Notes under the pieces: model-generated | The model's input: only the letters and a program-made list of their open reading frames with translations | What the model was told of the DNA's origin: nothing | The model's database searches: none | IMG/VR virus record: IMGVR_UViG_3300047557_002576 | Strand: one strand, 5' to 3' | DNA length: 64,000 nucleotides | From: a virus | Lineage: Duplodnaviria > Heunggongvirae > Uroviricota > Caudoviricetes | Made by a program: the position numbers and the translations under genes | Part shown: piece by piece, positions 7,260 to 28,778 of the stretch | Layout: each line of letters opens with the position of its first letter | Numbering within the stretch: position 1 is the first letter of the stretch

Positions 7260-7260
7260 T

Positions 7261-7662
7261 TTATCTCGTTGCCTCTAGTATGAATGTAAACTGTTGTGTT
7301 GGTATTTCTTGTCCAATAATATCAAATGTAATAGTCACTTCAAATTCATTTAAATCTGGTTTTGGATCTACTTGGACAACGACATTATTTACTCTTGGTT
7401 CATAGTTAGAAATAACCTCAGCAATTTGATCTCTAATTACTGAGGCAGTTCCATAATCTACAAAATCAAATAAAACTTTTCTTACATTAGACCCTAATGT
7501 AGAATTAAAAAATCTTTCAGTGGGTATTGTTTCAACTAAATTACGAATTGATCGAATAATAGATCTTTCATTGGTAAGGATTGGTAGGTCTTTTGACACT
7601 GGATGTGGTGTAAAAGACAAACTAATGTCTTTGAAAGATCTAGATATTCGAGTAATTGCCAT
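7261..7662 (-). CDS. baseplate wedge subunit gp25 (GPW/gp25 lysozyme-like family)
   Basis: 133 aa, the size of T4 gp25. The VISNYEPRV motif matches T4 gp25 NYEPRI. Confidence 0.8.
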   Translation of the reverse strand: MAITRISRSFKDISLSFTPHPVSKDLPILTNERSIIRSIRNLVETIPTERFFNSTLGSNVRKVLFDFVDYGTASVIRDQIAEVISNYEPRVNNVVVQVDPKPDLNEFEVTITFDIIGQEIPTQQFTFILEATR

Positions 7663-7693
7663 TTTAAAGCAAATTTTCTTTACTTATTTATGT

Positions 7694-7936
7694 TTATTTC
7701 CATGAAGATCCATAACTTGGTTCAGTTCCATACTCCCAATCGTCATAATCTTCATCATTTCTAATTTTTTCGTGCAATTCAACCTGCTTTTTTAGATCAT
7801 GTTTAGGTGCAGTATCATATAAAACTTCTTGAATCACTCTTTTTGTGGGATATTCAGTATAGTCCGTGACTAATTTTGTTGTTCCCCACGTTTCTTTCAT
7901 GTAATTTGAGTCTCTATCTACTGGTAAATTAGACAT
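7694..7936 (-). CDS. hypothetical protein
   Basis: 80-aa ORF, tight spacing in the minus-strand gene array. Confidence 0.45.
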   Translation of the reverse strand: MSNLPVDRDSNYMKETWGTTKLVTDYTEYPTKRVIQEVLYDTAPKHDLKKQVELHEKIRNDEDYDDWEYGTEPSYGSSWK

Positions 7937-8003
7937 TTTAGCTCCTGTTTTAATGAATAAAACAGAACTTTTATGAAGGAGGTTGCTATCTCCTTATTTC
8001 TAT

Positions 8004-8345
8004 TTAACGATCTAATTCACGCAGTTTATAATTGTCAGAATTTAGGTATTTTAGAATCTCTATTGCGATTATTTTTGGATTTCCTTCCCCACAAGTGTAT
8101 ACATCTATCGCCAAACAACCATTTTCTGGCCAGGTATGGCATGAAACATGACTTTCCGATAGTGCAATAACGATTGTACACCCCTGTGGATCGAATTTAT
8201 GACTAAAAACGTTCAAAATTGTCATTTTGGCACGTTCAATCCCCCTAATCATGACGTTCTGTAGAGATTCTACGTCATTAATTAGATTAAAATCAACATT
8301 ATAAACCTCCAGAAGAAGGTGTTTGCCCATCGAAAACTGCTCCAA
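8004..8345 (-). CDS. speD: S-adenosylmethionine decarboxylase proenzyme (pyruvoyl-dependent, class 1a)
   Basis: The LSESHVSCHTWPENGCLAIDVYTCG motif is the Glu-Ser self-cleavage and pyruvoyl site of bacterial/archaeal AdoMetDC. 113 aa is typical. speD is a known cyanophage auxiliary metabolic gene. Confidence 0.85.
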   Translation of the reverse strand: MEQFSMGKHLLLEVYNVDFNLINDVESLQNVMIRGIERAKMTILNVFSHKFDPQGCTIVIALSESHVSCHTWPENGCLAIDVYTCGEGNPKIIAIEILKYLNSDNYKLRELDR

Positions 8346-8368
8346 TTTTATTTTTGCAAAAAATTTAT

Positions 8369-8959
8369 TTATTGTATGTAAAAACCCTTACGAAGATAGT
8401 CTTTATCTTCTATAAATGTCATATTTTCGACCTTTTCATCATCCCAGACAGGTATTGCCACTGAATTATTGTATCTAAAGTCAGGATTTTGTCTGAAATG
8501 AACTTCAATAAGGTTTCCATTAATAAATTCACAGTTAATGTACTCATATTCCCCCTTTAAATCGTGTAAAATTTCAGGAAATTCTACATTTTTTTCAATT
8601 TTTTCCCATTTTTTCCATTTGTAATAGGGATCATCTACATTTCGGGTTCCTCTTACGACTAATTCTGGAGTTTTTTCTCTAAAATCAACACTTAGGTGCT
8701 CTCCTTCAAAAATCTCACACCAAAATTCAGAAGGATGCATGTGATCTGTATATTTTTCTATCCATTCTTTACGAGAGAAACGACCCATGCCAAGCAGATT
8801 AAATGATGGACGGACAATATAAAAGTCGGGTTTGGGAACTGTAGTGCCAACAGGACCACAAGTATAACCCAAAACCCGACTTAAAAATAGTTTATTATAA
8901 ACCCAGAGGTCTGATGGATGTATATTTAACCACTCATCATTACCCTCTAGGTGATACAT
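8369..8959 (-). CDS. hypothetical protein, tentatively an ATP-grasp-like fold
   Basis: 196 aa. DFYIVRPSFNLLGMG and NGNLIEVHFRQNP resemble ATP-grasp K-x-KP-GxG and LEVN motifs; weak, from memory only. Confidence 0.45.
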   Translation of the reverse strand: MYHLEGNDEWLNIHPSDLWVYNKLFLSRVLGYTCGPVGTTVPKPDFYIVRPSFNLLGMGRFSRKEWIEKYTDHMHPSEFWCEIFEGEHLSVDFREKTPELVVRGTRNVDDPYYKWKKWEKIEKNVEFPEILHDLKGEYEYINCEFINGNLIEVHFRQNPDFRYNNSVAIPVWDDEKVENMTFIEDKDYLRKGFYIQ

Positions 8960-9111
8960 TACCCTTTACCCTGTCCCCTGTACTTTTTACGAGCTTTATT
9001 ACGAGAAGTAGCGGAATACTTAGTGTTACTTCCAGCACCTTGAAGAGTGCTCTTAGGACGCCCAGGAACATAAGACCCAGTTCGCTTTGATCCAGTTGAT
9101 GATTTTGCCAT
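8959..9111 (-). CDS. small basic protein (50 aa, K/R/S/G-rich)
   Basis: ATG at 9109-9111. Its stop overlaps the ATG of the 8369..8959 gene (TAATG coupling). Sequence MAKSSTGSKRTGSYVPGRPK... Confidence 0.4.
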   Translation of the reverse strand: MAKSSTGSKRTGSYVPGRPKSTLQGAGSNTKYSATSRNKARKKYRGQGKG

Positions 9112-9116
9112 AGTGT

Positions 9117-9278
9117 TTAGTCTCCAATAATTTCAGTTTCAAGATCTTCAGGTTTTGGAGAACCTGTCTTATAAAATTCTATAGACAGATCCTCCATAAC
9201 ATTGAAATATTCCTCCTCTGTAAGATTTGAATAAATTTTTCTTCCCCTACAGAGGATGTTGTAAGTTTCTTTCGACAT
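9117..9278 (-). CDS. small hypothetical protein (53 aa)
   Basis: ORF MSKETYNILCRGRK... fills the gap between the glycosyltransferase stop and the 8959..9111 gene. Confidence 0.3.
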   Translation of the reverse strand: MSKETYNILCRGRKIYSNLTEEEYFNVMEDLSIEFYKTGSPKPEDLETEIIGD

Positions 9279-9282
9279 TTAC

Positions 9283-10038
9283 TCAGATGATTCTTGATTT
9301 TTCGTGACCAACTCTAATACGAGGGTCACACCAAATTTCAAATCCTGCTTCTTTTGCATCTAGACAGAATGATACATCTTCTCCACACATATCTTGAACT
9401 GCACCAGATTCAAAAACTTGCATCTTTGGAGCAAACCAAGGATATTTCATTTCAGGATGTTCAAAAACTCCATGCTTGATGAGAACCCAACCAAACCCAG
9501 TGTAGTCTACTGTAAATGGTTTCCGACGCTTTGAGATACTTTCAACGGTTTCGTGATTCATAACACCACCATTGCCACGGAAATCCTCTTCGTCCAACCA
9601 ATGTGCAACTGAGGTCGTGTGACCATCTTCAGTAGCGTACCAACCAGCAGCGATATCTTTATCCATCAGAACCAGTTGCCAGAATTTTTCTGTGTTGAAG
9701 ACAATATCACTATCAATCCAAAGTTGCCAATCGTATTGTAGTCTTCCATCCCAGGGAATTTGATCAGGTCCACGCAGGACATTCGCACCTAAACATTTGC
9801 ATCTTGCAAAATTTACCATTGACGAATAATCTTGCGAAATCTGAATACTCGCCCCTGACTGGACAAGATCAAAGCAAAGTTGGACGAAGTTCTTCAGATA
9901 AAGGTATGAAACTCCCCTTCCAGGAAGACAGAAAACAATTGATTTTCCCTTTACCATTTCTCTTGCAGCATCATAGTCCCACTCTTGGGTTTTTTCCACT
10001 GCAGGTGTTTTTGTTTTAACAGTAAATCCTTTAGCCAT
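9283..10038 (-). CDS. glycosyltransferase (GT-A fold, family uncertain)
   Basis: 251 aa. The C-terminal GEDVSFCLDAKEAGFEIWCDP...VGHEK resembles an ED/DxxFCxxA GT-A signature. Confidence 0.45.
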   Translation of the reverse strand: MAKGFTVKTKTPAVEKTQEWDYDAAREMVKGKSIVFCLPGRGVSYLYLKNFVQLCFDLVQSGASIQISQDYSSMVNFARCKCLGANVLRGPDQIPWDGRLQYDWQLWIDSDIVFNTEKFWQLVLMDKDIAAGWYATEDGHTTSVAHWLDEEDFRGNGGVMNHETVESISKRRKPFTVDYTGFGWVLIKHGVFEHPEMKYPWFAPKMQVFESGAVQDMCGEDVSFCLDAKEAGFEIWCDPRIRVGHEKSRII

Positions 10039-10090
10039 AATTGTTTGTAATTACTTCAGTATCATACTCTATTATCTATGCCAAGTCAAG

Positions 10091-10267
10091 TCAGTCAATT
10101 TCTTTTTCTGTCAAGATTAGATCGGATCCTTCGACATTAATTTCAATCTCAGTATCTTCATACCATGAGAGTTCATTGACCGCCCACTCTGGGATTACGA
10201 GATAATACTCACCAGAAATTGGATCGACTTGTAGTGGTTGAAAATTTTCTCCGGATTTTTTTTTCAT
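10091..10267 (-). CDS. small AbrB/MazE-like (swapped-hairpin) domain protein, 58 aa
   Basis: YYLVIPEWAVNELSWYEDTEIEINVEGSDLILTEKE fits the AbrB/SpoVT pattern (xxVxIP...G.eiei...lil). Shorter than the 60-aa track cut-off. Confidence 0.35.
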   Translation of the reverse strand: MKKKSGENFQPLQVDPISGEYYLVIPEWAVNELSWYEDTEIEINVEGSDLILTEKEID

Positions 10268-10544
10268 CTCTGTGTATTATTTTTGATTTTTCAAATTATA
10301 TAGTTTTTTTCCTTTTTGATCAAGGTCTACCGGCCGGAATTTTTTGAGTCGAGTGATATTTAGAGGTCGATCTGGGTCAGTTATAGATTACGGGGACCCA
10401 TTGATTTTTATATCGCATCTTCGGGCACCGCCACCCCCCATAGGGTAACTGTCAAACACGAACGCACATAGGGTCGCTAAATGTATCAAACTGTCGCCCA
10501 CTAACTTACAAATAGGGGGACAGAATGACTGCCCCCCACTAATA

Positions 10545-10715
10545 CTAACTGAATGCCATCTGATCTTCAACGAACGTCATAAGTTCGCCCACGTCGAGGT
10601 GGCAATCGACCCAATTTATCTCACTCCCATACTCTAAAAGAAACGCATCTACGACACCGCAATAGGTGGCGAATCGCAGTGCCTCAGAGTAACTAACTGC
10701 CAGGGGGTTGTTCAT
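10545..10715 (-). CDS. small hypothetical protein (56 aa)
   Basis: ATG is preceded by the 36-bp repeated element and a TCTCACCC leader, like its neighbours in the GC island. Confidence 0.3.
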   Translation of the reverse strand: MNNPLAVSYSEALRFATYCGVVDAFLLEYGSEINWVDCHLDVGELMTFVEDQMAFS

Positions 10716-10730
10716 AACGAAAGGGTGAGA

Positions 10731-10766
10731 GGTTTGAGTAATTTAAGGGGAGGGATTAACCTCCCC
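10731..10766. repeat. 36-bp repeated element GGTTTGAGTAATTTAAGGGGAGGGATTAACCTCCCC, copy 1 of 3, with internal hairpin GGGGAGG-GATTAA-CCTCCCC
   Basis: Near-identical copies at 10731-10766, 11186-11221 and 11886-11922, each about 15-25 nt upstream of a minus-strand ATG. Confidence 0.8.
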
Positions 10767-10775
10767 AAGTTCTAA

Positions 10776-11168
10776 TTACCAGTGCCAGGTTTGATAAACT
10801 TTAGTGTCCTCTTTGCCGCCGCAGATGTTAGTTACGCTGAGGTGAGCATTAACGTTACCCTTAAGATCCGCCCATAAGTTACGTGCATCCTCCACACTCA
10901 AACTATCATCAGCGAGCAGACACTTACCCCATACTTTCTCATCAGTCAGGATAGTTTGACGGTGTGAAGCGTAATCGAACTCCCCATTGCGTTTGAACAC
11001 TTCTAGGGAGATTTTAACTGTCCCATCTATTCTCACCTGCTGAGATAGTTTGCCACTACCTTTACAAGCGAAGCAAACGCCGCCGCTTACATGTCCGTAA
11101 TGGGGTAAGATACCTTTACCGTTGCAGCGGTCGCATTCATGAACTAGGGTTTCAAACGTGGCAGGCAT
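10776..11168 (-). CDS. hypothetical zinc-binding protein (CxxC...CxxC)
   Basis: 130 aa. CDRCNGKG ... CFACKGSGK. Confidence 0.5.
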   Translation of the reverse strand: MPATFETLVHECDRCNGKGILPHYGHVSGGVCFACKGSGKLSQQVRIDGTVKISLEVFKRNGEFDYASHRQTILTDEKVWGKCLLADDSLSVEDARNLWADLKGNVNAHLSVTNICGGKEDTKVYQTWHW

Positions 11169-11185
11169 GATCTTAGTGGGGTGTG

Positions 11186-11221
11186 GTTTGAGTAATTTAG
11201 GGGGAGGGATTAACCTCCCCC
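11186..11221. repeat. 36-bp repeated hairpin element, copy 2
   Basis: GGTTTGAGTAATTTAGGGGGAGGGATTAACCTCCCCC, immediately upstream of the 10776..11168 start. Confidence 0.8.
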
Positions 11222-11556
11222 GTTTATCATCAGAGGCGATAACCGCTCAATGGTTCGCTCTCACCTTCGGGCGGTTCAGCATTCCAATGGGAGTACTCGA
11301 CACCCCGTGCAACCATGCTGTAGAGCACTTCCTGGCACTCCGACAGCGGACCCCGCCACATAACCTCGCCACCATCCTCTCCACCCCAAATGGTGGCGAT
11401 AGGTTTGGGAGAGTTCGGGAAAGGGTCGGGCAGGCAGAATCGGCGGATCATGGGTCTTAGGTATGGTGCGGGATCCCCGTCCCGCTTGCAGACATCCTAC
11501 CGCATCGGGGGCGGATCCGCGACCCACCCCCGACACATTTGTTAATTTATAATTTA

Positions 11557-11868
11557 TCAGCGTAGTCCTAAATGCTTTGCTACAACGTAGGGCATTAAAG
11601 TTACATCGACGCCATAATCGTATTCTTCCGATTCTGCGGGGAAGAATGTCACGTACCATCCGCCCGTTCCAGTGATCGTAGGCACCTCATCATTAGACTC
11701 ACAACGACAAACGTAGTTGTATCCGATCGTTTTAATGTAGGACGCCATGCTTTCAGCGTTAGTGTGACCGTTGCGGTTGATCATCATCAGGACATTAACT
11801 GTATCTTCAAGACCAGAATAATCCCAGTCAATTTTAGGGATCCGAACAGTGGGGAGAGTAGCAGACAT
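11557..11868 (-). CDS. hypothetical protein
   Basis: 103-aa ORF with the repeat element upstream. Confidence 0.5.
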   Translation of the reverse strand: MSATLPTVRIPKIDWDYSGLEDTVNVLMMINRNGHTNAESMASYIKTIGYNYVCRCESNDEVPTITGTGGWYVTFFPAESEEYDYGVDVTLMPYVVAKHLGLR

Positions 11869-11885
11869 GGCGAAAAGTGTGGTGA

Positions 11886-11922
11886 GGTTTGAGTAATTTA
11901 AGGGGAGGGATTTAACCTCCCC
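11886..11922. repeat. 36-bp repeated hairpin element, copy 3
   Basis: GGTTTGAGTAATTTAAGGGGAGGGATTTAACCTCCCC upstream of the 11557..11868 start. Confidence 0.8.
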
Positions 11923-11932
11923 AGAGTGTAGA

Positions 11933-12178
11933 TCAGTGAAAGAAATCGTAGGGGGTGTCCTCTGTAGGATCCCAACTATCAGCGATCGACTCCAACGTAG
12001 GTTCGGGATCCTGACCCATGTTATAGGCGTCGATCAGACAATCCAGATAGAAATCCTCAGTGTCCATAATAGGCAGAAAATTATACTTGTCGAATCGCAG
12101 ATCTTCTACGCGATTCCACCAATCGCAGAATCCAGCATCATCAAAGCAGTTGGAGGTTGTGAGGTTTGCGGTTTGCAT
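11933..12178 (-). CDS. hypothetical acidic protein
   Basis: 81 aa, D/E-rich. Confidence 0.45.
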   Translation of the reverse strand: MQTANLTTSNCFDDAGFCDWWNRVEDLRFDKYNFLPIMDTEDFYLDCLIDAYNMGQDPEPTLESIADSWDPTEDTPYDFFH

Positions 12179-12371
12179 GTCGGTGTCAGTGGTGAATGAC
12201 TTTTACAACCTACACGACAGGCACGGATCGCACAAGCGGCAAACGGTTCGTGCTGATACCAAACGGGAAACTCATTCTATTAAAACCGCTGATGGGTCAG
12301 ACCCTTGACGGATGGGCGGGTCATGTGGTTTGAATCGGCATCTGATCTCATAACGCTTGCGGCATCTGCAT

Positions 12372-12413
12372 CATAACAGTAGCGTTATGTATGTCATAAC
12401 AGTAGCGTTATGT
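12372..12413. repeat. direct repeat CATAACAGTAGCGTTATGT, two adjacent copies; a third copy at 16101-16117
   Basis: Exact 19-mer at 12372-12390 and 12395-12413. A 17-nt core recurs at 16101-16117. Confidence 0.8.
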
Positions 12414-12445
12414 CAGCAGTTTGCACATAAAACTCAAACAGTGCT

Positions 12446-12570
12446 AAGTATAAAGAATAAACCAAGGATTGCAGAGTATAAAGAATAAACCAAGGATTGT
12501 AGAGTATAAAGAATAAACCAAGGATTGCAGAGTATAAAGAATAAACCAAGGATTGCAGAGTATAAAGAAT
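12446..12570. repeat. tandem array of 28-bp units AGAGTATAAAGAATAAACCAAGGATTGC, 4 full units plus a truncated fifth
   Basis: Read directly; units differ only at one position (C/T). Gapless, so not CRISPR. Confidence 0.9.
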
Positions 12571-12582
12571 CACTGCCCTTTG

Positions 12583-12681
12583 AGGATTGAATGTGATTAG
12601 AATAACCACACCACATGACAAAAGAATCACATTCAATCCTGAAAAGGTAGTGTAAAGAATAGAGAACTACTTTAGATTCAT
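12583..12681. repeat. two long inverted repeats: AGGATTGAATGTGATT/AATCACATTCAATCCT (12583-12640) and AAGAATAGAGAA/TTCTCTATTCTT (12645-12681)
   Basis: Read directly. Large potential stem-loops, non-coding. Confidence 0.8.
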
Positions 12682-12718
12682 TCTCTATTCTTTATACCTT
12701 CTAATCCTAATTCATTCT

Positions 12719-12880
12719 TTATACTAACCTTGCAGAAACTCCACAAGACTTATAAAACTTAACCATTCTTTCTGCTTCTTCTTTAGTTGTAAAGGATTGT
12801 GTTCTCCATTCACAATCATTATAAGGAGTCTGATAAGTTATAGTGAAACCGATTGAATTGATTTGTTGATTGTTGTTCAT
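12719..12880 (-). CDS. small hypothetical protein (53 aa), AT-rich codon usage inside the GC island
   Basis: ORF MNNNQQINSIGFTITYQ... Confidence 0.3.
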   Translation of the reverse strand: MNNNQQINSIGFTITYQTPYNDCEWRTQSFTTKEEAERMVKFYKSCGVSARLV

Positions 12881-12884
12881 GATT

Positions 12885-13020
12885 GAATAATGATGGTGAT
12901 GTGTATAATCTAGTCGAGATGTGTATGTGTGTGTCTCGACTAGATTAATGTGTGTGTGTCTCGACTAGATTGATGTGTGTGTCTCGACTAGATTAATGTG
13001 TGCATTCTCGTCGAGATTCA
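12885..13020. repeat. cluster A of palindromic 13-bp iterons (ATCTCGACTAGAT/ATCTCGTCGAGAT), including a 3-4x tandem of 23-bp units GTCTCGACTAGATTAATGTGTGT
   Basis: Read directly. Same core as clusters at 16450-16572 and 19020-19265. Confidence 0.85.
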
Positions 13021-13399
13021 ATCCTTGCCTGTTGCATTTCACGAACCAAGTTTAGATAGTTGATTCGTGTAGTTTTTTCTACTTCAGCACAAGAATCTGT
13101 GCGATGTAGATGCCACTCACTGAACGCAATTTGCCATTCAGTGTGAAGTAATTTGAGGGCACTCATCAATAATGCCAGCGACTCATCACACTGTTAGGAT
13201 CATTGTACCAATCTTCCTCCTCATAAGTTGTAACTTTAGGAGTCATCCGAACAATCAGATCATCGGAGAGTGTGCAGACTCCAGTTGTAACTAACTGGAA
13301 AATCTCATCAGGTGTCAGAAAGGTTTCCATTGTGGTGTGGTGTGAACTTGAATCAGTATAAGGTGGAGAGGTGGGGGGTTGGTGCCCCCCGTGTGCAAC

Positions 13400-13663
13400 T
13401 TAATCGACTGTCACAATACAGCGGAACCGTTGCATCTCATCAGCGTAAGAGTCAAGATCCTCGCTTGAAGTATCCTCCCAAGCGATCCATTCATTGTCTC
13501 CCTTGTGAAGATCAATGCACACCAGATCAGGTGCATTCTTTGCAACCTGATTTACACTGCCGAAAAAGTCTACGTAGACTGCATCCCGTTGGGCGTAAAT
13601 CTCAGGTTCGGGATCCAGTGCGGTGATCCAGCGGATGCTGTCCAGGAAAGCGGTGAGATCCAT
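13400..13663 (-). CDS. hypothetical acidic protein
   Basis: Track ORF 13400..13771. Likely true start is MDLTAF at 13663, preceded by the CCACCACACCACACC leader. Confidence 0.45.
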   Translation of the reverse strand: MDLTAFLDSIRWITALDPEPEIYAQRDAVYVDFFGSVNQVAKNAPDLVCIDLHKGDNEWIAWEDTSSEDLDSYADEMQRFRCIVTVD

Positions 13664-13856
13664 TGGGGTGTGGTGTGGTGGACTGAGAGAATTGTAGCAG
13701 ATCAGAGGGAACCTTGGCGACCCATTGCTGACCATTCGTGAGCAGGTTTGGCGACCCCATTGCGGACCCATACCAGTTGGCGGGTCTTAAGGTCGGAAGC
13801 GGGTGAGAGAGTCATGGTAGTGGGGGAACCTTTGTGGTTCCCCGTATTGTAGCAGA

Positions 13857-14114
13857 TCAGGCGAACAGAGCAGCGATCCGGTCACGCTTGCGGATCTGAT
13901 CGGGGATGATGAACCACAGATCCCGCTTGCCGTTGTCGGAGCGGGTAGCGTCCAGGATGCCCCACTTCTCAAGATCGACCAGCACCGCATGAATGGTGCC
14001 CTTATGGCGGCGGGGGTCCATCCCCATCAGGCGAACCAGGTCAGAGCAGGTCTGCGGACCCTTGCTGATCAGGATGCTGCGGACGGCGACGCGGGTGAGC
14101 AGGTGGAAGTTCAT
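13857..14114 (-). CDS. winged-helix DNA-binding protein (putative transcriptional regulator)
   Basis: Track ORF 13857..14153; likely start MNFHLL at 14114. TIHAVLVDLEKWGILDATRSDNGKRDLWFII is wHTH-like. Confidence 0.45.
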   Translation of the reverse strand: MNFHLLTRVAVRSILISKGPQTCSDLVRLMGMDPRRHKGTIHAVLVDLEKWGILDATRSDNGKRDLWFIIPDQIRKRDRIAALFA

Positions 14115-14367
14115 CGGTGTGGTGTGGTGAACTGAGAGAATCATACAGACCACTGTGGCAGGTTCTGATCCAGGTTGTGCCAGTGGTCAGACTGTCCACC
14201 GATGCGGGTTTTGTGGGCGTGCTGGTGCCTATAATACGGGGACAATCGAAGGAGGTGCGGGGTAGCACTGTAGACGACAACGATCGACACCGACCCTGCC
14301 TTGAAATAATGGCGGAAAAAATACAAAGAAAGGGGGCGGATTGTGCCCCCTGTTTGATACTTTAGGA

Positions 14368-14646
14368 TCACATGTCGATCCTTTCAATGTCACCATGTCG
14401 GAGGCATTTGTTAAACAGAGTGCCCCAACTTGTCGCTGCTTTGGATTCTTCATCGCTGAGCAGATCATACCAACGTTGGCACTCTCCCTCATCCTCCCAA
14501 GTATAGCGGTAGGTTTTGCCGCTGCTCTTAAAGGTTACAAGCAGATCATAGGCATCGGTGCCATTATCTGCGGGGATGATCTCCAGATGGGAGATAGCAC
14601 TGGAATCGACTTTAGCAGCGATGGAAAGGTCGGTGGTGGTGAGCAT
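14368..14646 (-). CDS. hypothetical protein
   Basis: 92 aa. Preceded by the cassette (hairpin GGGGGTCTCAGCACCCCC, TATACT, ATG). Confidence 0.5.
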   Translation of the reverse strand: MLTTTDLSIAAKVDSSAISHLEIIPADNGTDAYDLLVTFKSSGKTYRYTWEDEGECQRWYDLLSDEESKAATSWGTLFNKCLRHGDIERIDM

Positions 14647-14717
14647 TGCTCCTCCGTTGTTGACTCTTACAGTATAAGGGTTGGAGTGGGGGTGCTGAGA
14701 CCCCCGTGTGCCAGTTC

Positions 14718-15395
14718 TCAGGGTGTCACAATGGCGTTAACTTTATTCTTTGATGCCCCGTGAGCAGGAAACGCTATCACAAACTCACGGTCTGCTACTT
14801 GACACAAACCACAAGTGGCACAAGTTACCTTACCAGGATGCAATGCTGCAGGGCAGGTAATCACCTTCCGCCCGTTGGTTGTTGTGAAGAATCGACGCTT
14901 TTCTTCACTGTTAACAACCGCAACGGCGGGAATCTTATACTCAGTCATTACACGGTCAGCATCATCAACCGACTCACATGATGCATTGACGGTAAATCCC
15001 ATTCCGTTTGCATTCTGTAGAGCGATCACGTTATGATCGTTCAGAATGTGGTGAGAATAGGTGAAACCTTTCTTACCTTTGTTTGCATCAATTAGGCGAC
15101 GCAGTTTAAGGTAATCAATGTTACCATCATTGTGAGGAAGATCTCCAGCGGTATTGTGCCGCCAGAGTGTATTCTTGGGGACGATTCGGCGGATCTGAGT
15201 AATAAACTCATCCCAATTTACGCCCGTTTCATTGCGGTTCAGGCGATCCCATTGCATACGCTCACGCCCAAGAGTAGCGTAGCATCCTGCATTGTAGAAT
15301 GGGCAGGTTGTAGGGCAGGATACCCGCTCCGTGCGTGTGGTGGTGATCGGACCAGTTTTAGCGTTACCTGAGACCTTTGTGATGGTGACGTTCAT
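14718..15395 (-). CDS. cysteine-rich hypothetical protein (225 aa)
   Basis: SCPTTCPFYNAGC and CATCGLC clusters; no confident family assignment. Cassette upstream. Confidence 0.5.
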   Translation of the reverse strand: MNVTITKVSGNAKTGPITTTRTERVSCPTTCPFYNAGCYATLGRERMQWDRLNRNETGVNWDEFITQIRRIVPKNTLWRHNTAGDLPHNDGNIDYLKLRRLIDANKGKKGFTYSHHILNDHNVIALQNANGMGFTVNASCESVDDADRVMTEYKIPAVAVVNSEEKRRFFTTTNGRKVITCPAALHPGKVTCATCGLCQVADREFVIAFPAHGASKNKVNAIVTP

Positions 15396-15479
15396 GGCGT
15401 GGTGTGGTGCCGTTGACTCCTACAGTATAGGGGATGGGGGCAGCGGTTGCCGCCCCCGTAGTGGACACTTAACGGATTG

Positions 15480-15947
15480 TCACGCTGCCCAGAGGTTTTC
15501 TTCAATCAGGCGATCAATCAGTGCCTTAGAGAGTGACCCACAGTGCTCACAATGGGTCTCAATCTTCACCTTTTCGTGCAGGTAGTTGTAGACAGTCACA
15601 GACTGATAGTGACCGAAGTGCCAGCGATAAACTGCACTGAGAGTTTGCAGATACTTACGGAAGACCACATAATCATCGTAAGAAGTGTGAGACTTCACCC
15701 AGTGATAGATGCCGATAAAGTGGCGGAAGTCGGGAGTTGTGCGGAAATAACCTTTGTTGGCAGCACGACTATACTTAAGGGCATCCATGATGCGATCTGC
15801 GTAATCCTTGCGGAAATACTTTTCAGTTACTTCCTGGCAGACTTCATCAAGTTTGCGAATACCTTCCTCATTCAGTTGCAGAGGAAGAATAGGATTAAAG
15901 AACGGGGCAGCGTTGTTGTTAGCGGTGCCGTTGTTGAAGAAGGACAT
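15480..15947 (-). CDS. hypothetical protein (likely about 155 aa)
   Basis: Track ORF 15480..16172 probably over-extends in GC-rich DNA. The internal ATG at 15945-15947 (MSFFNNG) is the likely start. Confidence 0.45.
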   Translation of the reverse strand: MSFFNNGTANNNAAPFFNPILPLQLNEEGIRKLDEVCQEVTEKYFRKDYADRIMDALKYSRAANKGYFRTTPDFRHFIGIYHWVKSHTSYDDYVVFRKYLQTLSAVYRWHFGHYQSVTVYNYLHEKVKIETHCEHCGSLSKALIDRLIEENLWAA

Positions 15948-16256
15948 GGTTCGGTTCGGTGTGGGTTGTCGGGGTGGTGTGCCGCCGATGAGTGAATGAT
16001 GCCCCGCCAGAATCCAGCACCACAACCGACCTTGTGACACTACCAGGATTGTCACATCAGGCAAACGGACACTACTAATAGATGGGATGAGACATAATGA
16101 CATAACAGTAGCGTTATCATTAAGACAATAAAAAGGATCGGGCACCACCCCGATCCTCTGTACCCACATCACCTATACCATGCTAGGATTATCTGTTCTC
16201 TTACTCGCTGGGTAACTTTACTGAACAGTTGGAGGCAAACCCCTTCCTCCTTTGTG

Positions 16257-16445
16257 TTAGAATTGTATCATCCAGTCTGGGTCGTTGTCAAGTGCTGCCC
16301 AGAAGAAGTTTTTGCGATTCTGGGATGCAATGAACAGTTTGCCACCCTTGTGTTGTTCAACAATACATTCAGGGTTGCTGTCCATGAGATTGGCAAAACG
16401 ATTCTTTGCCTTGCGGGAAATTGGAGTGACGATTGCGGTTTGCAT
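16257..16445 (-). CDS. hypothetical protein (62 aa)
   Basis: ORF directly downstream of iteron cluster B. Confidence 0.35.
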   Translation of the reverse strand: MQTAIVTPISRKAKNRFANLMDSNPECIVEQHKGGKLFIASQNRKNFFWAALDNDPDWMIQF

Positions 16446-16449
16446 GATG

Positions 16450-16572
16450 AATCTCGATCTCGATGTGTGTAATCTAGATCATTGTGCAGGTCTCGTCGAG
16501 ATTGATGTGCCACTAGATGATGTGGCACATCTCGTCGAGTTTCAGAACTGGATCTCGTCTAGGGTTGGAACA
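16450..16572. repeat. cluster B of palindromic iterons (GTCTCGTCGAGATT, ATCTCGTCGAGTT, ATCTCGTCTAGGG, AATCTAGATCAT) plus inverted repeat GTGCCAC-TAGATGATG-TGGCAC
   Basis: Read directly. Confidence 0.8.
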
Positions 16573-16695
16573 TTATCTTGACTAGATTCACTAGAGTCCA
16601 TCCCATTACACAGTGCATCAAGAATCGAAAGGATGCTGTTCCCATCAGTGCCTAGACGAAGTTGAGCAATCAGAAGATCTTTGGTCATTGTAGTT

Positions 16696-16932
16696 TCAGT
16701 AATCAGGGGTTTCAGTAATTTTTACACCAAACGATTCGAGAACTTCATCATCATAATACTCACGAATCTCATTGATGAGTTCTTCTTCAGAATACTCGTT
16801 GTAGTTTGCAACGAGAGTGTCAAATACGAACTGTTCCATTGTCTTGTAATCCATGCCGTCCATTACGAACTCGGCATACTTCTCAACAAGAGTCGAGAAG
16901 TCATCAGTCCAGGTTTTTGCGTTGTTAGACAT
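16696..16932 (-). CDS. small acidic protein
   Basis: 78 aa, D/E/Y-rich. Confidence 0.5.
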   Translation of the reverse strand: MSNNAKTWTDDFSTLVEKYAEFVMDGMDYKTMEQFVFDTLVANYNEYSEEELINEIREYYDDEVLESFGVKITETPDY

Positions 16933-17114
16933 CAGAATACCAGATAGGGTGTGCCTTCGGAAATGAGACCAGGAATACTACAATGTGCAGAGCGAAGTCC
17001 AGTAACTTCATTATCCAGTAAAAGATCCTCCTCAAAGTTATAGAGAATGATCTCACGATCCAGTTGTTCTTCAGTCAGATTCTGAATCTGGGAGAGAAGA
17101 TCACGGTAAGTCAT
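16932..17114 (-). CDS. small acidic protein
   Basis: 60 aa; start/stop overlap with neighbours. Confidence 0.45.
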   Translation of the reverse strand: MTYRDLLSQIQNLTEEQLDREIILYNFEEDLLLDNEVTGLRSAHCSIPGLISEGTPYLVF

Positions 17115-17350
17115 CAGTCGTTCTCCTCAAAGAGTGAGCGAATCTTAGTCAATGCAGTGTAGTAATCTTCCAGATACTCACAATCTTCATCTTCATACTG
17201 ACGATTACTGTCCAGAAGATCATGAATCAGATCCCATTCGGAATCTGTAAAGAACTCTTTGATGGGGTGTGTGGTGGTGTTCATGTGATGTCTCAGGAAC
17301 AAAGGTAGTATGGCAGGGATCTGGTGAAAACACAAGACCCCTTGTGCCAC
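17114..17350 (-). CDS. small acidic protein
   Basis: 78 aa; coupled to the downstream gene. Confidence 0.45.
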   Translation of the reverse strand: MAQGVLCFHQIPAILPLFLRHHMNTTTHPIKEFFTDSEWDLIHDLLDSNRQYEDEDCEYLEDYYTALTKIRSLFEEND

Positions 17351-17530
17351 TTACTTAACTGTCACACATCATAGCAGATGGTGCCTTGAAACTCATCTTC
17401 AACCAGTTTGTTCTCATAATCATCCCAGAGGTGAAGATTCAGGAGAAAGTTGAGATGATCGACCCATTGTGCGTTGAGTTGCATGATGTGATCGTGATTC
17501 CGAATGATGTCGGTGTTGTAGTAGTTCATT

Positions 17531-17713
17531 TCAGAAGTCCCAGTTAGAGTTCAGAAAAGCATCAAAGGATTCTTCTTCAGCAGGGAACTCATCATCAAGA
17601 TCCCGCATCTCAAGGAGATCCCAAATCTCACCCGGAGCATCAGCGATTTCAATCCAGAGGGTGTCTTCCATGAGTGGTGGTGTCGTTGGTTGACTCTTGA
17701 AGTATAGGGGCAC
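17531..17713 (-). CDS. small acidic protein
   Basis: 60 aa. Cassette variant upstream (TATACTTCAAGAGTCAACC..CACCACCACTCATG). Confidence 0.45.
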   Translation of the reverse strand: MPLYFKSQPTTPPLMEDTLWIEIADAPGEIWDLLEMRDLDDEFPAEEESFDAFLNSNWDF

Positions 17714-17747
17714 TGTAGCGTCTTCTAGGTGCCCCTTAGGTCAGTTG

Positions 17748-18005
17748 TCAGAGTGGCACACAAGCACCTTGACGGACTTGAGAATAAGACTCACCAAACA
17801 ATCCGCCATTCTTATGGTGAATCCCATAATAATAGCGTCGTGTGTTCACTTCAGTGAGACCAAAGTGTTGTGCAATCGTCTTGAATGAATGAGTCGGATA
17901 ACACTTCTTATAAGCGTTAATCATTGTACACCAGAACTCTGCGTGTTTGGTGAATCGAATGCTCTTGGATGGATGAACTTGAACGGTTCTCATGGTACTT
18001 GACAA
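17748..18005 (-). CDS. small helix-turn-helix protein
   Basis: TIAQHFGLTEVNTRRYYYG is HTH-like. Confidence 0.4.
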   Translation of the reverse strand: MSSTMRTVQVHPSKSIRFTKHAEFWCTMINAYKKCYPTHSFKTIAQHFGLTEVNTRRYYYGIHHKNGGLFGESYSQVRQGACVPL

Positions 18006-18073
18006 AGTGTGATTTTGTGAGTAGACTAGGTTTGTCCCCGATGAAGATGAGAATCTAAGTTACTTTAAGACTC

Positions 18074-18577
18074 TTATACCGCTAGTGCCCCAGCAGGAAT
18101 GTCCACCAGTTCAGGATCCTGATCGGTGAACTGGTGCATATCGTAGCATACCCACTCACCCTCAGTGAACAGGTAAGAATATTCTTCACCTTTCGATAGA
18201 TACTCCTCTACCGAATCATCATGACGTGGTGGGGTATCTTCACCACGCTGAGAATAATAGAGTGGACCTTGTGCTACAGTTTCATTATTGAAACCAGCAT
18301 TAGTCCATGCAGAACTCATGTCACCTCCATCAATCAGTTCTGCTGCCTGATCATAGGAGTTGTAATGAGTCTTAAGAATACGACCCAACCAGGAAGGATA
18401 ACCATCCCAGTGATGATACGCAGAGAGCACAGAACCATCAGAGAGTTCAATGCCGATTCGTGATCTGGTTGCCATTGGTGTGGGGTGAACAACGATGTCA
18501 ATGTAGGGCATGAAGTGGGGGAAGGAACTCCCCCTTGTGTCAGTTGTTGAATCGTCACATTTTATATCCAGACACAA
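18074..18577 (-). CDS. hypothetical protein
   Basis: 167-aa track ORF; likely start at MPYIDIVV (18508). YHHWDGYPSWLG motif, no family recognised. Confidence 0.45.
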   Translation of the reverse strand: MCLDIKCDDSTTDTRGSSFPHFMPYIDIVVHPTPMATRSRIGIELSDGSVLSAYHHWDGYPSWLGRILKTHYNSYDQAAELIDGGDMSSAWTNAGFNNETVAQGPLYYSQRGEDTPPRHDDSVEEYLSKGEEYSYLFTEGEWVCYDMHQFTDQDPELVDIPAGALAV

Positions 18578-18729
18578 AGATATGACTCCTAAGTGATGAG
18601 AATTGAAAACACCAATCCTATCAGGAATCGTCCTGTTTTTTTGTTGAGTTGTGTCAATGATTTATTGTTTCCTATTTTATTATGCCGGAGACAGGATTTA
18701 ACTCCCTCTTGTATAACGAATGTTGTGTT

Positions 18730-18785: not shown

Positions 18786-19019
18786 TCACAGTATACTTGA
18801 CTACCGCGAATTCTTATGCTAGTATAAATCTGAATAGTCTTTGACTTTAGCAGTGACTGATTCATCTCCTTCTAACTTTAGAAGTTCATGCCAATTAATA
18901 TCTTCCAAGTCTAAATCATCATAACACTCAAGGTCTAGTGTGACTTGTACTAGGCGTTTTTGTGCGATCATAAGAACTCGTGGTAGTGTGGTCTAGATTC
19001 TATCATGCGTAGTGACGAA

Positions 19020-19265
19020 ATGCAAGATCTTGATAGTCTTGCGAGTCTCGTGCATAATCCTCGTCGAGATCTGATGCATAATGCCCATCCTCGTCGAGAT
19101 TATAATCGTTGCTGTAAGAATAGTCGAGATCGTAATCGTCGTACATAACTCGTCGAGATTCTGTGAGTGACTTGATTATTGTACCATAAAACTCGACGAG
19201 ATGCAAGTGTTCTCACAGGTCTCGTCGAGATTCACATGATTCTATATATGCGTCTCGTCTAGATT
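19020..19265. repeat. cluster C of about 9 palindromic iterons, (A/T)CTCGTCGAGAT in both orientations
   Basis: Read directly. Sits between the terminator and the plus-strand endonuclease gene; the ORFs called here are spurious. Confidence 0.85.
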
Positions 19266-19526
19266 TTGTGTGGGTCTCATGATATAACAATAGTATTATA
19301 TAATTATGTGTGGGTCTGTGAACTTTTGTGGAACCTGCTTGACTTTTTTGCGATCTCGTGGTAGAGTGCGGGGTTAGTGGCATATAAGGACTCATATTTA
19401 TAATGCTTATAAAACACGCAAATATATTTTTCCACAATTAAACTTAAGTTATCCACATAGTTGTTAAAAACATAAGAAGAAAACAAACTATATAAAAAAG
19501 AATAATATACTATACAAATAATACCA

Positions 19527-20339
19527 ATGTCTCAGGGTATAATCTACTTAATTACTAATAAAGTAAATGGTCACAAATACGTGGGACAAACTACTCAACC
19601 TATGAATAAAAGATGGTCTGCTCACATTCAAGAATCAATTAGAATGTCGAATAAACCATTACATAGAGCATTTCGCAAATATGGTGTAGATAAATTTGTA
19701 ATTAAACAAATTGATGAATGTGACATATCGATACTAAATGAAAGAGAAGAATATTGGATAAAACATTATAACACATTTGAAAGTGCTGAAGGGTACAATG
19801 CTACAAGTGGTGGAGATAGACCTTCTTTTAGTCAAGAAACTAAAGATAAACTATCAAATATAATGTCTGATATTGAAAGAACAGACATTTGGGTTAATAA
19901 TATTAAAAACTCACTCATCGAAAAAGCAAAAAAAGAATCTTGGGGATTTTTAAAAGAAAGTAATAGAGGAAATGGTAAGCACTCTGCTTTAAAAATAAAA
20001 GGAACAAATATTGAAACTGGTGAAATAAAAGAATGGAATAGTGTCTCAGAAGCAGCGATAGAAGTTGGTGGATCTGTTAAAAAGAATGGTAATATACTAC
20101 GTGCTGCTCGTAAAGGATATAAATGCTATGGTTACACTTGGGAAATATTAGAAGATAAAACTAAAAAGAAATCAATATTTGGGGTTAACAAAAAAACCAA
20201 AATGATTGGACCAAAATATGAAAGTATAAGACAAGCAGCAAGAGAAGTTGGTGATGGTGGTGCGGGAAGTGGAATTATAAAAAGTTTAAGGAATCCAGGA
20301 AAGTATAGTTGGAAAGGATATTATTGGTATTACCTATGA
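19527..20339 (+). CDS. GIY-YIG homing endonuclease (Seg/I-TevI-like), 270 aa
   Basis: GIIYLITNKVNGHKYVGQT is the GIY-YIG motif; C-terminal K-rich DNA-binding region. One of very few plus-strand genes. Confidence 0.8.
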   Translation: MSQGIIYLITNKVNGHKYVGQTTQPMNKRWSAHIQESIRMSNKPLHRAFRKYGVDKFVIKQIDECDISILNEREEYWIKHYNTFESAEGYNATSGGDRPSFSQETKDKLSNIMSDIERTDIWVNNIKNSLIEKAKKESWGFLKESNRGNGKHSALKIKGTNIETGEIKEWNSVSEAAIEVGGSVKKNGNILRAARKGYKCYGYTWEILEDKTKKKSIFGVNKKTKMIGPKYESIRQAAREVGDGGAGSGIIKSLRNPGKYSWKGYYWYYL

Positions 20340-28619: not shown

Positions 28620-28778
28620 CTATTTCTGGTACACTGGTGGAGGCAATTCTGGACGATTCATCTCAGATGCTGTCTTCTGGATATTGAGCATCATACCATC
28701 CAGGGTCTTAGCAACAGGACCAAAACCAATGGTAGCAACAATAATACCGAAGATTGTACCAGAAATGAAGTTAAACAT
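28620..28778 (-). CDS. small membrane protein (52 aa)
   Basis: ATG overlaps the TGA of the SPFH gene. MFNFISGTIFGIIVATIGFGPVAK is one TM helix. Confidence 0.4.
   Translation of the reverse strand: MFNFISGTIFGIIVATIGFGPVAKTLDGMMLNIQKTASEMNRPELPPPVYQK

Follow-up and report, generated by a model that had tools for sequence, protein, structure and literature searches.

The 64,000-nucleotide stretch of DNA analysed here, from a freshwater virus of cyanobacteria (IMG/VR record IMGVR_UViG_3300047557_002576, Caudoviricetes; the whole stretch is called the window) carries, between about 10.4 and 18.6 kb, an island of small genes whose guanine-plus-cytosine (GC) content lies far above that of the rest. 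It is best seen as part of a hyperplastic region that sits just upstream of the baseplate-wedge module in Kyanoviridae T4-like cyanophages; in the window, the baseplate-wedge genes lie at 1–8 kb. We consider the island to be the GC-rich core of this region, a place of modular cassette shuffling that keeps its own composition in all relatives and holds early genes with host-like codons, and we give this reading a probability of roughly 0.6. According to it, most genes or gene pairs would follow a compact cassette, genes would be gained, lost and swapped singly by recombination at cassettes and gene boundaries, and the high GC content and near-absence of the codons AGA, TTA and ATA would be kept in every relative. 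The island genes would be early genes transcribed by the host RNA polymerase, and their host-like composition would allow translation from the tRNA pool of a high-GC host before phage tRNAs for A-ending codons come into play.

Composition and position of the island

The earlier note on this DNA had claimed a sharp break in composition and codon usage, and the break is real: GC is 0.469 at 10300–18600 and 0.351 in the rest of the window, and GC at third codon positions (GC3) is 0.48 in the island and 0.25 elsewhere, with fourfold sites shifted as well. Other 8.3-kb windows average 0.358 (standard deviation 0.014, maximum 0.382), which puts the island about 8 standard deviations higher. In a 200-bp GC profile the edges are sharp, at about 10.4 kb and 18.6 kb, and the interior is uneven, with peaks of 0.57–0.60 at 11.2–11.6 and 13.6–14.2 kb and a dip to 0.31–0.35 at 12.4–13.0 kb. 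The flanks, which the same note called strongly AT-rich, are so apart from transitional stretches at 8.5–10.3 kb (0.37–0.40) and 18.6–19.4 kb (0.35–0.42). C ends a fraction of 0.47 of NNY codons in the island and 0.25 elsewhere, and G ends 0.48 and 0.23 of NNR codons, respectively. AGA makes up 5% of the arginine codons in the island and 48% elsewhere (p = 4e-18), TTA 6% and 25% of the leucine codons, and ATA 5% and 21% of the isoleucine codons; the island's choices for Leu, Arg and Ile are the host-like CTG, CGC and ATC. By a hand calculation from position-specific base frequencies, AGA is observed at 0.05 where about 0.16 is expected, and this calculation suggests that the avoidance of AGA, TTA and ATA exceeds what base composition predicts. 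Non-coding DNA is shifted (GC 0.47–0.51 vs 0.37), as is amino-acid usage (R/(R+K) 0.55 vs 0.36), and within the island the GC skew is reversed, C outnumbering G on the coding strand.

The description of the genes as small, acidic and co-oriented also holds: there are about 23 open reading frames (ORFs) of 37–225 aa, all on the minus strand, with 15.3% D+E and 9.3% K+R. So does the remark on spurious ORFs in several frames (75 ORFs of at least 50 aa in 13 kb, many overlapping and on both strands). Outside the island, the minus strand carries 95 of 101 ORFs. Smaller GC bumps lie at 57–59 kb, with the UvsW-type helicase gene 57681–58910 (minus strand, GC3 0.42), and at 28.5–30.5 kb, with the SPFH/Band-7 gene 28778–29620 (minus strand, GC3 0.46).

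DNA searches against isolate phages returned only T4-like cyanophages, in short patches. The nearest is the freshwater Synechococcus phage S-SRM01 (Kyanoviridae, Serangoonvirus; genome 240.8 kb, 35.6% GC), at about 77–79% nucleotide identity in patches, and judged by these matches the window is from a T4-like cyanomyovirus close to S-SRM01. A conserved 251-aa gene at 9283–10038 served as the anchor for relatives and retrieved 80 related IMG/VR loci; upstream and downstream GC were compared in the 23 of these that have at least 5 kb upstream of the anchor gene. Among the sequences named below, L002 is contig IMGVR_UViG_3300046777_002692, a metagenome assembly near-identical to the window, L085 is a metagenomic genome of 240.8 kb, and L091 is S-PM2 (NC_006820). 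The genes of the island and its borders to which the argument refers are as follows.

10400–18600, minus strand: island core, about 23 small ORFs with cassettes between them, most proteins without a family
18074–18475, minus strand: first island gene, 133 aa, phrog_1987 (PHROG match 5.6e-45), homologue of S-PM2p016
17748–17993, minus strand: gene of 81 aa, with an unrelated ORF in its place in L002
17285–17529, minus strand: module of gene 17362–17529 and its 3′ cassette A3, present only in the window when compared with L002
14718–15395, minus strand: DUF7227 gene, 225 aa (Pfam 1.3e-78), an accessory gene in several phage groups
13857–14114, minus strand: GC peak (GC 0.61, GC3 0.83), predicted stand-alone winged-helix DNA-binding protein of 85 aa
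12719–12880, minus strand: low-GC gene of 53 aa, kept in 18 related loci; flanked by the palindrome array and the AT-rich gap with repeats
11230–11451, minus strand: second GC peak (GC 0.59), a 73-aa ORFan with 2 clusters only in 5.8 billion proteins
9283–10038, minus strand: conserved 251-aa core gene at the downstream border, aa identity 84–100% across the 80 IMG/VR loci and 90% to S-SRM01
19527–20339, plus strand: GIY-YIG homing endonuclease gene (Pfam GIY-YIG 5.5e-13, plus NUMOD1) at the upstream edge, GC 0.28

The rise in GC recurs at the same place throughout the relatives. In 23 of 23 loci the maximum upstream GC is higher than the downstream mean (22 at 0.45–0.64, one at 0.44), and the downstream, baseplate side has GC of 0.29–0.40, or 0.29–0.37 where more than about 130 nt of it are present. 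S-SRM01 reaches 0.42–0.52 at the syntenic site, L085 and L086 rise likewise, and the island of the marine phage S-PM2 stands at 0.51–0.58 at 21–25 kb, its homologues of island genes keeping their order. Collinearity of island genes extends to S-SRM01 gp172–178 and to many loci, at 28–85% aa identity; other island genes occur in the window alone or are shared only with L002. Because many of the genes are collinear orthologues at 40–85% aa identity, the island predates these lineages. The mean GC3 of island orthologues per locus is 0.39–0.87, compared with 0.23–0.42 for the core, and the two are uncorrelated (rho = -0.12).

Cassettes and the exchange of modules

The cassettes between the island genes share a fixed order. 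A 24-bp dyad, TGTGACA-N10-TG(G/T)CACA, is followed by a spacer of about 30 nt and then by a TATACT or TATAAT -10 box; some 5–7 nt farther on come a start region conserved as AGTCAAC or CAGTTCA, a C/A-rich leader of the CACCACACC type without a Shine-Dalgarno sequence, and the ATG. In about half of the cassettes the spacer holds a G-rich/C-rich stem-loop (G5-6/C5-6) that closes the upstream gene. The exact dyad core occurs seven times in the window vs 0.73 expected, and a looser pattern on the minus strand has six of its nine occurrences at 13.4–18.8 kb, the rest being at 21411, 23612 and 34119. The cassettes, terminators and repeated block of the island are listed below.

18476–18559, minus strand: cassette A1, dyad TGTGACG-N10-TGACACA, G5/C5 hairpin (-12.4 kcal/mol), TACATT, CA-rich leader; precedes gene 18074–18475
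17672–17750, minus strand: cassette A2, degenerate distal half-site, hairpin GGGGCAC..GTGCCCC (-16.5 kcal/mol, z = -3.7), TATACT, AGTCAAC, CA-rich leader
17366–17343, minus strand: dyad of cassette A3, 3′ of gene 17362–17529
16132–16159, minus strand: putative intrinsic terminator with U-tract (-20.6 kcal/mol, z = -4.2), ends the island's first transcription unit
15948–16056, minus strand: cassette A4, perfect palindrome TGTGACA-N10-TGTCACA, 31 nt, CATCATT, long C-rich leader; precedes gene 15480–15947
15396–15484, minus strand: cassette A5, upstream of the DUF7227 gene
14647–14730, minus strand: cassette A6, the one quoted in the earlier note
14331–14351, minus strand: putative intrinsic terminator with U-tract (-15.1 kcal/mol), after gene 14368–14646
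13331–13415, minus strand: cassette A8, dyad 13415–13392, G6/C6 hairpin, TATACT, CACCACACCACA leader
10716–11926, minus strand: block B, three direct copies of a second cassette bracketing gene modules
10537–10515, minus strand: putative terminal intrinsic terminator (-19.1 kcal/mol), island end

The individual motifs quoted from A6 and its like are all present: GTGACACCCTGAGAACTGGCACA at 14729–14707 on the minus strand, CTATACTGTAAGAGTCAAC-type boxes in three occurrences (family D9), CACCACACCAC leaders as families D8 and D15, and G5/C5 hairpins that fold at -9 to -30 kcal/mol. Altogether 14 intergenic hairpins of this energy range stand beside -10 boxes in the island, and U-tracts accompany three of them (16159–16132, 14351–14331 and 10537–10515). 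The second cassette of block B is a GGGGAGGTTAATCCCTCCCC hairpin followed by TTAAATTACTCAAACC, with copies at 11876–11922, 11175–11221 and 10721–10767 (family D3, 47 nt, 85% identity). Two further repeated elements were noticed, namely another promoter-like type, TGATCTGCTACAAT with an extended -10 box, at 13816–13858 and 13664–13706 (minus strand), upstream of two adjacent small genes, and the leader ATTCTCTCAGTYCACCACACCACACC (26 nt, 96% identity), common to genes 13400–13663 and 13857–14114.

A survey of the window and about 0.95 Mb of related loci shows how widely the cassette is distributed. The related loci hold 74 dyads on the gene strand and 19 on the opposite strand, and the distance from dyad to TAnnnT peaks at 30 nt. 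Of 79 distinct cassettes, 75 have an inner spacer of 11 nt, and a G-run and a C-run occur in the spacer of 37, so that the hairpin is optional. Since 72% of the 79 lie within the 24% of the sequence with local GC above 0.42, the cassette belongs to these GC-rich islands and is not, as had been supposed, a variant peculiar to this one. What stands is the proposal that the genes use the regulatory grammar of their own lineage: the same cassettes occur in S-SRM01, where the dyad/-10 module recurs, in S-PM2 and in the related loci. In S-PM2, dyad cassettes lie at 20118, 20399 and 20656, at the start of the island, whose GC-rich and cassette-dense part spans 20.6–25.3 kb.

The cassette differs from a conventional sigma-70 promoter. 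A sigma-70 scan misses the cassettes, which have no -35 box; the spot 17 nt upstream of the -10 box falls within the hairpin and is unconserved, and the dyad, ending about 30 nt upstream, replaces the -35. The half-sites of the dyad are reverse complements save for one variable position, and the dyad also occurs inverted, in L002 and at Syn9 52998; half-site symmetry and inverted occurrence therefore suggest that it is read by a dimeric DNA-binding factor. A sigma-54 reading of TGGCAC was rejected on inspection, as the TTGC expected five nt downstream is not conserved, and a CRP reading of TGTGA..TCACA was rejected because the half-sites fit at a spacing of 14 nt, not 6.

In the marine phage Syn9, a dyad/30-nt/TATTCT/AGTCAA module lies upstream of gp73 and an inverted dyad upstream of gp90 (L087 48560 and L088 2998, the latter being Syn9 52998). 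These are the only two strict matches to the dyad module in the first 100 kb of Syn9, and both are in small-gene clusters. In 2016 Doron and colleagues reportedly described a novel early-gene element in Syn9 that is conserved among T4-like cyanophages; it may be identical with the dyad, in which case the dyad promoter element would already be published for Syn9.

The T4 late-promoter consensus TATAAATA is absent from 10.3–18.6 kb and occurs ten times in the window, always on the gene strand (minus: 24652, 28502, 37466, 40265, 40336, 46006, 52388, 55455, 18730 and 19395). To judge from this, the island genes, with no late promoter upstream, are not T4-type late genes. Several of the boxes stand directly upstream of larger ORFs, and from their distribution much of 20–56 kb looks late-transcribed, though its genes are small.

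Comparison with L002 shows that the island is exchanged in pieces. L002 is identical to the window at every position of 6050–10552; the first difference, at 10553, falls within the island's last gene, immediately ahead of the terminal terminator (10515–10553, the island end), and from there to 20.8 kb identity is 73–100% per 200 bp outside the sites of indels and replacements. The module 17285–17529 is absent from L002, where the flanking genes abut as TGATG at a junction with ATGAAC microhomology. Gene 17748–17993 is swapped for an unrelated ORF between a conserved leader and a conserved downstream cassette, two extra ORFs stand in L002 at 16932, gene 12993–13166 is present only in the window, and the repeat content of the 12.2–12.5 kb gap differs. 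Gene 11557–11868, between two copies of the block-B cassette, is only 73% identical. The GIY-YIG gene is found in the window alone, as an insertion that is precise relative to L002. Joints between the two genomes are start/stop overlaps with 5–6-nt microhomology or lie within cassettes and leaders, and relative to S-SRM01, too, indels and replacements are located at cassettes or leaders.

Cassette A5, in front of the DUF7227 gene, is homologous to the S-SRM01 cassette upstream of the GP88-family gene gp179, and the DUF7227 and gp179 products show no protein similarity; the gene in the equivalent slot of L085 has a GP88 Pfam match. L085 and L086 part at 6256 and 383, respectively, 8 nt ahead of an ATG: on the downstream side they do not differ, on the upstream side they are unrelated, a contig-end replacement; at this break a dyad cassette is present in one genome and absent in the other. 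Three close locus pairs in all, including window and L002, were available for contrasting a clonal core with a mosaic island. On this sequence evidence the island is recombinationally uncoupled from the core, and the gain, loss and swap of single modules therefore mark the region as a shared gene pool that evolves apart from it.

By analogy, the pattern between window and L002 is that described for modular shuffling by PeSLs (promoter-early stem-loop cassettes) in the hyperplastic regions of T4-type phages (PMC4122927). Like PeSLs (PMC2839356, PMC4122927), the island cassettes are modules of stem-loop and promoter between small accessory ORFs, concentrated in hyperplastic regions; near-identical direct copies bracket genes, and single-ORF indels or replacements between close relatives fall at cassettes. 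In PeSLs as described, a Shine-Dalgarno sequence is present and the stem-loop immediately precedes a sigma-70-type -35/N17/-10 promoter (PMC2839356, PMC4122927), whereas here a dyad stands upstream of the -10 box in place of a -35, the stem-loop lies inside the 30-bp spacer, and the leader is C/A-rich without a Shine-Dalgarno sequence. The cassettes are composite elements enriched in variable regions, and the region behaves as a hyperplastic region of the PeSL type does; it is best called PeSL-like and not a member of that class because the -35/-10 promoter downstream of the stem-loop is missing. Substrates for recombination between cassettes, which for PeSLs leads to deletions or mini-circles, are present in the three direct copies of block B. 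Neither Arbiol et al. 2010 (PMC2839356) nor Comeau et al. 2014 (PMC4122927) reports a shifted base composition of PeSL-carrying regions.

A second known system of this kind is the ORFanage of S-PM2 (ORF017-050; Puxty et al. 2015, PMC4503421, citing Millard et al. 2009), which is likewise a run of small ORFans beside conserved modules and is dispensable in culture and prone to gain and loss (PMC4503421). S-PM2p016, which directly precedes it, is the homologue of the first island gene; the product of 18074–18475 has 64% aa identity to S-PM2 5370–5771, and an early promoter has been reported upstream of g016 (PMC4503421). Unlike the island, the ORFanage has GC of only 0.35–0.40 and few PeSL-like elements (PMC4503421), and the GC-rich, cassette-dense part of S-PM2 lies beyond it and the tRNA cluster. 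The ORFanage (p017-p050) and the tRNA cluster stand between the homologues of the first and the later island genes, as though they had entered the island by insertion.

Why the island is GC-rich

Three causes fit the composition and do not exclude one another, namely host-compatible codons in early genes, an influx of GC-rich genes and biased gene conversion. Host-compatible codons together with shuffling are ranked first among them, by a modest margin. Cyanomyoviruses are held to stay low-GC and to rely on tRNAs, whereas cyanopodoviruses match host GC (Limor-Waisberg et al. 2011, PMC3152331). The island resembles the latter in that its codon usage moves towards high-GC hosts, and differs in being one compartment of a myovirus whose remainder is low-GC and, in S-SRM01, served by 11 tRNAs. 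Tentatively, one may go further and picture two translation compartments in Kyanoviridae, a low-GC bulk that would depend on phage tRNAs and a block conserved in position, probably immediate-early, driven by dyads without a -35 and shuffled, whose host-like composition would be actively maintained, would evolve apart from the core and would let the unaltered tRNAs of a high-GC host translate it. Within this bolder picture the iteron locus described below may serve as an oriE-like origin, or an island protein such as the winged-helix protein may bind it as a regulatory hub.

Several points weigh against host-compatible early genes as the explanation. Their early timing is drawn from promoter type and from analogy with T4 and the PeSLs. 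Most hairpins have no U-tract, so the terminator role is putative. The explanation is favoured by the S-SRM01 tRNAs, 9 of the 11 reading A-ending codons (TTA, CTA, AGA, GGA, CCA, TCA, ACA, GCA and GTA) and the remaining two being Met-CAT and Asn-GTT (PMC8557907), as well as by the avoidance of AGA, TTA and ATA in the hand calculation above, but A-ending codons with and without an S-SRM01 tRNA are depleted alike, both in the window (odds ratio 0.38 vs 0.44) and in S-SRM01 itself (0.58 vs 0.56). The tRNA-specific hypothesis therefore gains nothing beyond the general GC shift. Pure translational selection also fails to predict the shifts seen in intergenic DNA and amino-acid usage. The dyad cassettes at 21411, 23612 and 34119 lie in ordinary GC, and the nearby ORFs of at least 60 aa all have GC3 below 0.38. 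Finally, the contrast between window and L002 comes from one metagenome contig, which may be chimeric; only two further close pairs were available for comparison.

The rival that survives best, though we think it unlikely, is a steady influx without selection, in which the region is a landing pad for genes from GC-rich phages or hosts and turnover outruns amelioration. Gene-by-gene turnover is seen even between near-identical genomes, DUF7227 is common to Pseudomonas and other phages, and the GC peaks are an ORFan and a gene that isolates lack. The shift extends to every class of site, to intergenic DNA and to amino-acid usage, and a larger part of the GC3 variance is accounted for by gene family (R2 = 0.48) than by locus (0.31). 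However, for the most GC-rich genes no homologue was found in hosts or GC-rich phages, the lineage-native cassettes are GC-rich too, and the breadth with which a gene is shared has no significant link to its GC3 (rho = -0.17, p = 0.44). As GC3 spans 0.23–0.90 within families, and widely conserved collinear genes still have 0.4–0.5, composition changes in place. If gene influx were the sole cause, the region would be an ordinary, though unusually clear, hyperplastic region.

GC-biased gene conversion, which would raise GC everywhere in a recombination hot spot made of cassette repeats and double-strand breaks by homing endonucleases, is a less probable explanation still. It agrees with the strong recombination signal confined to the region, with coding, non-coding and amino-acid composition shifted alike, with a composition near equilibrium, and with homing endonuclease genes at or inside the region elsewhere as well as in the window (two HNH genes in S-SRM01, HNH in L085). 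It does not account for the persistence of the AT-rich repeat locus and the low-GC gene 12719–12880 in mid-island, for the extension of the mosaic zone upstream to 20.8 kb, where GC is low, or for the avoidance of AGA, TTA and ATA beyond base composition by the hand calculation above. To our knowledge, GC-biased conversion has not been shown for T4-type recombination.

About equally improbable is the view that the anomaly marks a replication origin, with iteron and palindrome loci like those of T4 oriE, and skew and GC shift arising from replication. It starts from the repeats within and beside the island, which are the following.

19060–19264, minus strand: third palindrome cluster, seven copies, partly within mini-ORF 19003–19146 and outside the GC island
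16492–16541, minus strand: palindrome cluster, three copies of (T)CTCGACGAG(A) around a TGTGCCAC..GTGGCACA hairpin; precedes gene 16257–16445
12910–13017, minus strand: tandem array of period 23–25, TCTCGACGAGA / TCTAGTCGAGA palindromes separated by CACACA, followed by an inverted copy and by TAGATTATACA; precedes gene 12719–12880
12180–12718: non-coding gap of 540 bp, GC 0.39, the 'origin-like' locus

The 11-bp palindrome TCTCGACGAGA has 12 copies with at most one mismatch (0.3 expected), all at 12.9–19.3 kb and in three clusters, each directly upstream of a -10-like box and gene start. The array at 12910–13017 is kept upstream of the homologous gene in S-SRM01, L002, L008, L011, L012, L015 and L023. 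The gap at 12180–12718 holds 4.4 copies of a 28-bp tandem repeat (12447–12570) with an inverted copy at 12686–12708, an inverted repeat with 28-nt arms (12571–12652) and two ATAACGCTACTGTTAT palindromes (12368–12411); at this locus L002, L023 and L067 have arrays that share the repeated core TATTCTTTA and otherwise differ, with another copy number in L002. The repeat loci that had been assigned to the island are real and conserved in relatives, but they lie mostly in the AT-rich dip at 12.2–13.0 kb or just beyond the island at 19.0–19.3 kb. Two side observations concern these repeats. The ATAACGCTACTGTTAT palindrome recurs in non-coding DNA, as two adjacent copies at 12368–12411 and at 16097–16117 and 19279–19299, and both copies at 12368–12411 are missing from L002. 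The mini-ORF 19003–19146 (minus strand) encodes 47 aa, is acidic and rich in D and Y, and is conserved in about 15 loci; its DLDE codons coincide with the palindrome GATCTCGACGAG, and either the protein or the DNA sites may be the conserved item.

In favour of an origin, the lower-GC gap combines direct and inverted iterons with palindromes, iteron-type arrays stand at the same locus in relatives with varying units, the GC skew flips across the island, and T4 oriE is found next to a GIY-YIG gene, at a distance of 1.7 kb upstream of gene 6. The 12-nt iterons of oriE are conserved in the syntenic regions of T4 relatives, and the origin depends on an early promoter (PMC3016281). The window locus resembles oriE in having an iteron array conserved at a syntenic site, in lying a few kb upstream of baseplate gene 6 with a GIY-YIG gene nearby, and in its probable early-transcribed setting, oriE sitting in an early-transcribed pocket. 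The two differ in that there is no sequence similarity, no homologues of repEA or repEB are found, and oriE lies antisense inside gene 5. An origin would not explain a rise of third-position GC over 8 kb, no initiator gene was recognised, and because all genes are co-oriented the change of skew is explained by C-ending codons and CA-rich leaders. The role of iterons is unproven even for T4 oriE (PMC3016281), and palindrome arrays directly upstream of a -10-like box and gene start fit operators equally. The repeat arrays may thus be operators or an oriE-like origin, and both fit equally well.

The earlier note had explained the island as a block acquired from a related phage of higher GC with the same regulatory grammar. 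As a single, fairly recent 8-kb import this is largely refuted, and we hold it for very improbable. It is true that the compositional edges are sharp, that the island is far more diverged from L002 than the flank, with the break at the island edge, and that the cassettes belong to the lineage. The raised GC is found at the same position in 23 of 23 loci and in S-SRM01, with a comparable island in S-PM2, many genes are collinear orthologues, and island GC is heterogeneous (0.31–0.60). Downstream GC is 0.29–0.40 everywhere, the value of 0.40 coming from a stub of about 130 nt, and as no relative with a GC-rich core, a possible donor, is present among the loci examined, a single import from a higher-GC phage is unsupported. 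The substitutions, too, are near equilibrium and not ameliorating. Polarised window–L002 substitutions in the island comprise 89 GC-to-AT and 70 AT-to-GC changes, with an implied equilibrium GC of about 0.41, and the island is therefore not falling towards 0.30; the flank offered 8 informative substitutions, too few for a control. An amelioration gradient was rejected for the same lack of strong decay and because sharing breadth and GC3 are not significantly linked.

Horizontal exchange as such remains part of the picture, in that L002 is a mosaic and modules pass among related phages; what fails is the single transfer from a higher-GC relative. The note had itself named synteny and uniformity in all relatives as evidence that would speak against it. 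The island is indeed syntenic in relatives, which defeats a one-off acquisition, and its gene content is variable, not uniform. Viewed as a genomic island, the region has the deviating composition but is not absent from close relatives and has no tRNA, integrase or att sites: no tRNA genes and no Rfam families were found in the window, no integrase-like matches among the scanned proteins and no att-like borders. The sole long-range repeat across the island borders is a 22-nt AT-rich inverted pair (I3).

Capture of host DNA from a cyanobacterium can be set aside as highly improbable. In its favour, the Leu, Arg and Ile codons are host-like, and GC3 reaches 0.83 in one gene and 0.9 among orthologues, values such as high-GC Synechococcus have. 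Against it, the most GC-rich gene, when sought in 185,579 species genomes, turned up on three contigs from metagenome-assembled genomes (MAGs), none cyanobacterial, the island proteins have matches in PHROG phage families or none at all, tRNA, integrase and att-like borders are all missing, and Gly and Ala codon choice is GGT and GCA where high-GC hosts are expected to prefer GGC and GCC.

A conserved compartment with its own composition is mentioned neither in the S-SRM01 paper nor in the S-PM2 deletion and codon-strategy (PMC3152331) papers. If the reading of the island as a GC-rich, shuffled core of host-like early genes is true, a compartment with independent, host-like composition would refine the picture of uniformly low-GC cyanomyoviruses (PMC3152331). 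It would provide a sequence-only marker for a distinct, probably early set of host-takeover genes in uncultured cyanophages, and would point to a place where freshwater and marine phages probably exchange genes. Objects for tests are at hand in the dyad/-10 promoter, the iteron locus, the stem-loop cassettes and the conserved winged-helix protein.

Individual genes and neighbouring features

The most GC-rich gene, 13857–14114, is predicted to encode a winged-helix DNA-binding protein. Its AlphaFold2 model (pLDDT 91.9) has the topology H-H-H-E-E-H, and nearly all top Foldseek matches are MarR-type or other winged-helix proteins at TM scores of 0.6–0.7 normalised to the query. Pfam membership is not reached (best MarR_2, E = 0.017, 15.7 bits vs a cut-off of 27), and the product is without the dimerisation helices of full MarR proteins (85 vs about 140 aa). 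The family comprises 371 clusters, the best 120 at 71–98% identity, on contigs of up to 240 kb; the homologues have a median GC3 of 0.78 and lie at the same syntenic site where checked. A tblastn search of 50,697 phage records found nothing in isolate phages, and the species genomes contained no cyanobacterial homologue, two of the three MAG contigs being shorter than 8 kb. So far as these searches reach, the family is known only from uncultured phages. Homologues on short contigs in Bacteroidetes, Rhodobacteraceae and Ilumatobacteraceae MAG bins (L082, L083 and P0068) are most likely phage contamination.

The DUF7227 protein is 57% identical to its counterpart in Synechococcus phage DSL-LC03, and 166 Pseudomonas phage records match it at 44%. 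Gene 10776–11168 has weak matches, below Pfam cut-offs, to DnaJ-type CxxCxGxG zinc-finger families. Gene 27712–28476 (minus strand) encodes a NUMOD3-domain protein and is probably a further homing endonuclease gene. At the downstream border, next to the terminal terminator, the 275-bp non-coding stretch 10270–10545 (minus strand) holds GGGGGGTGGCGGTGCCC and an A-rich tract and is 100% identical to L002. Next to it lies the conserved gene 10091–10267, of 58 aa, whose S-SRM01 homologue is annotated as a DNA-binding domain protein.

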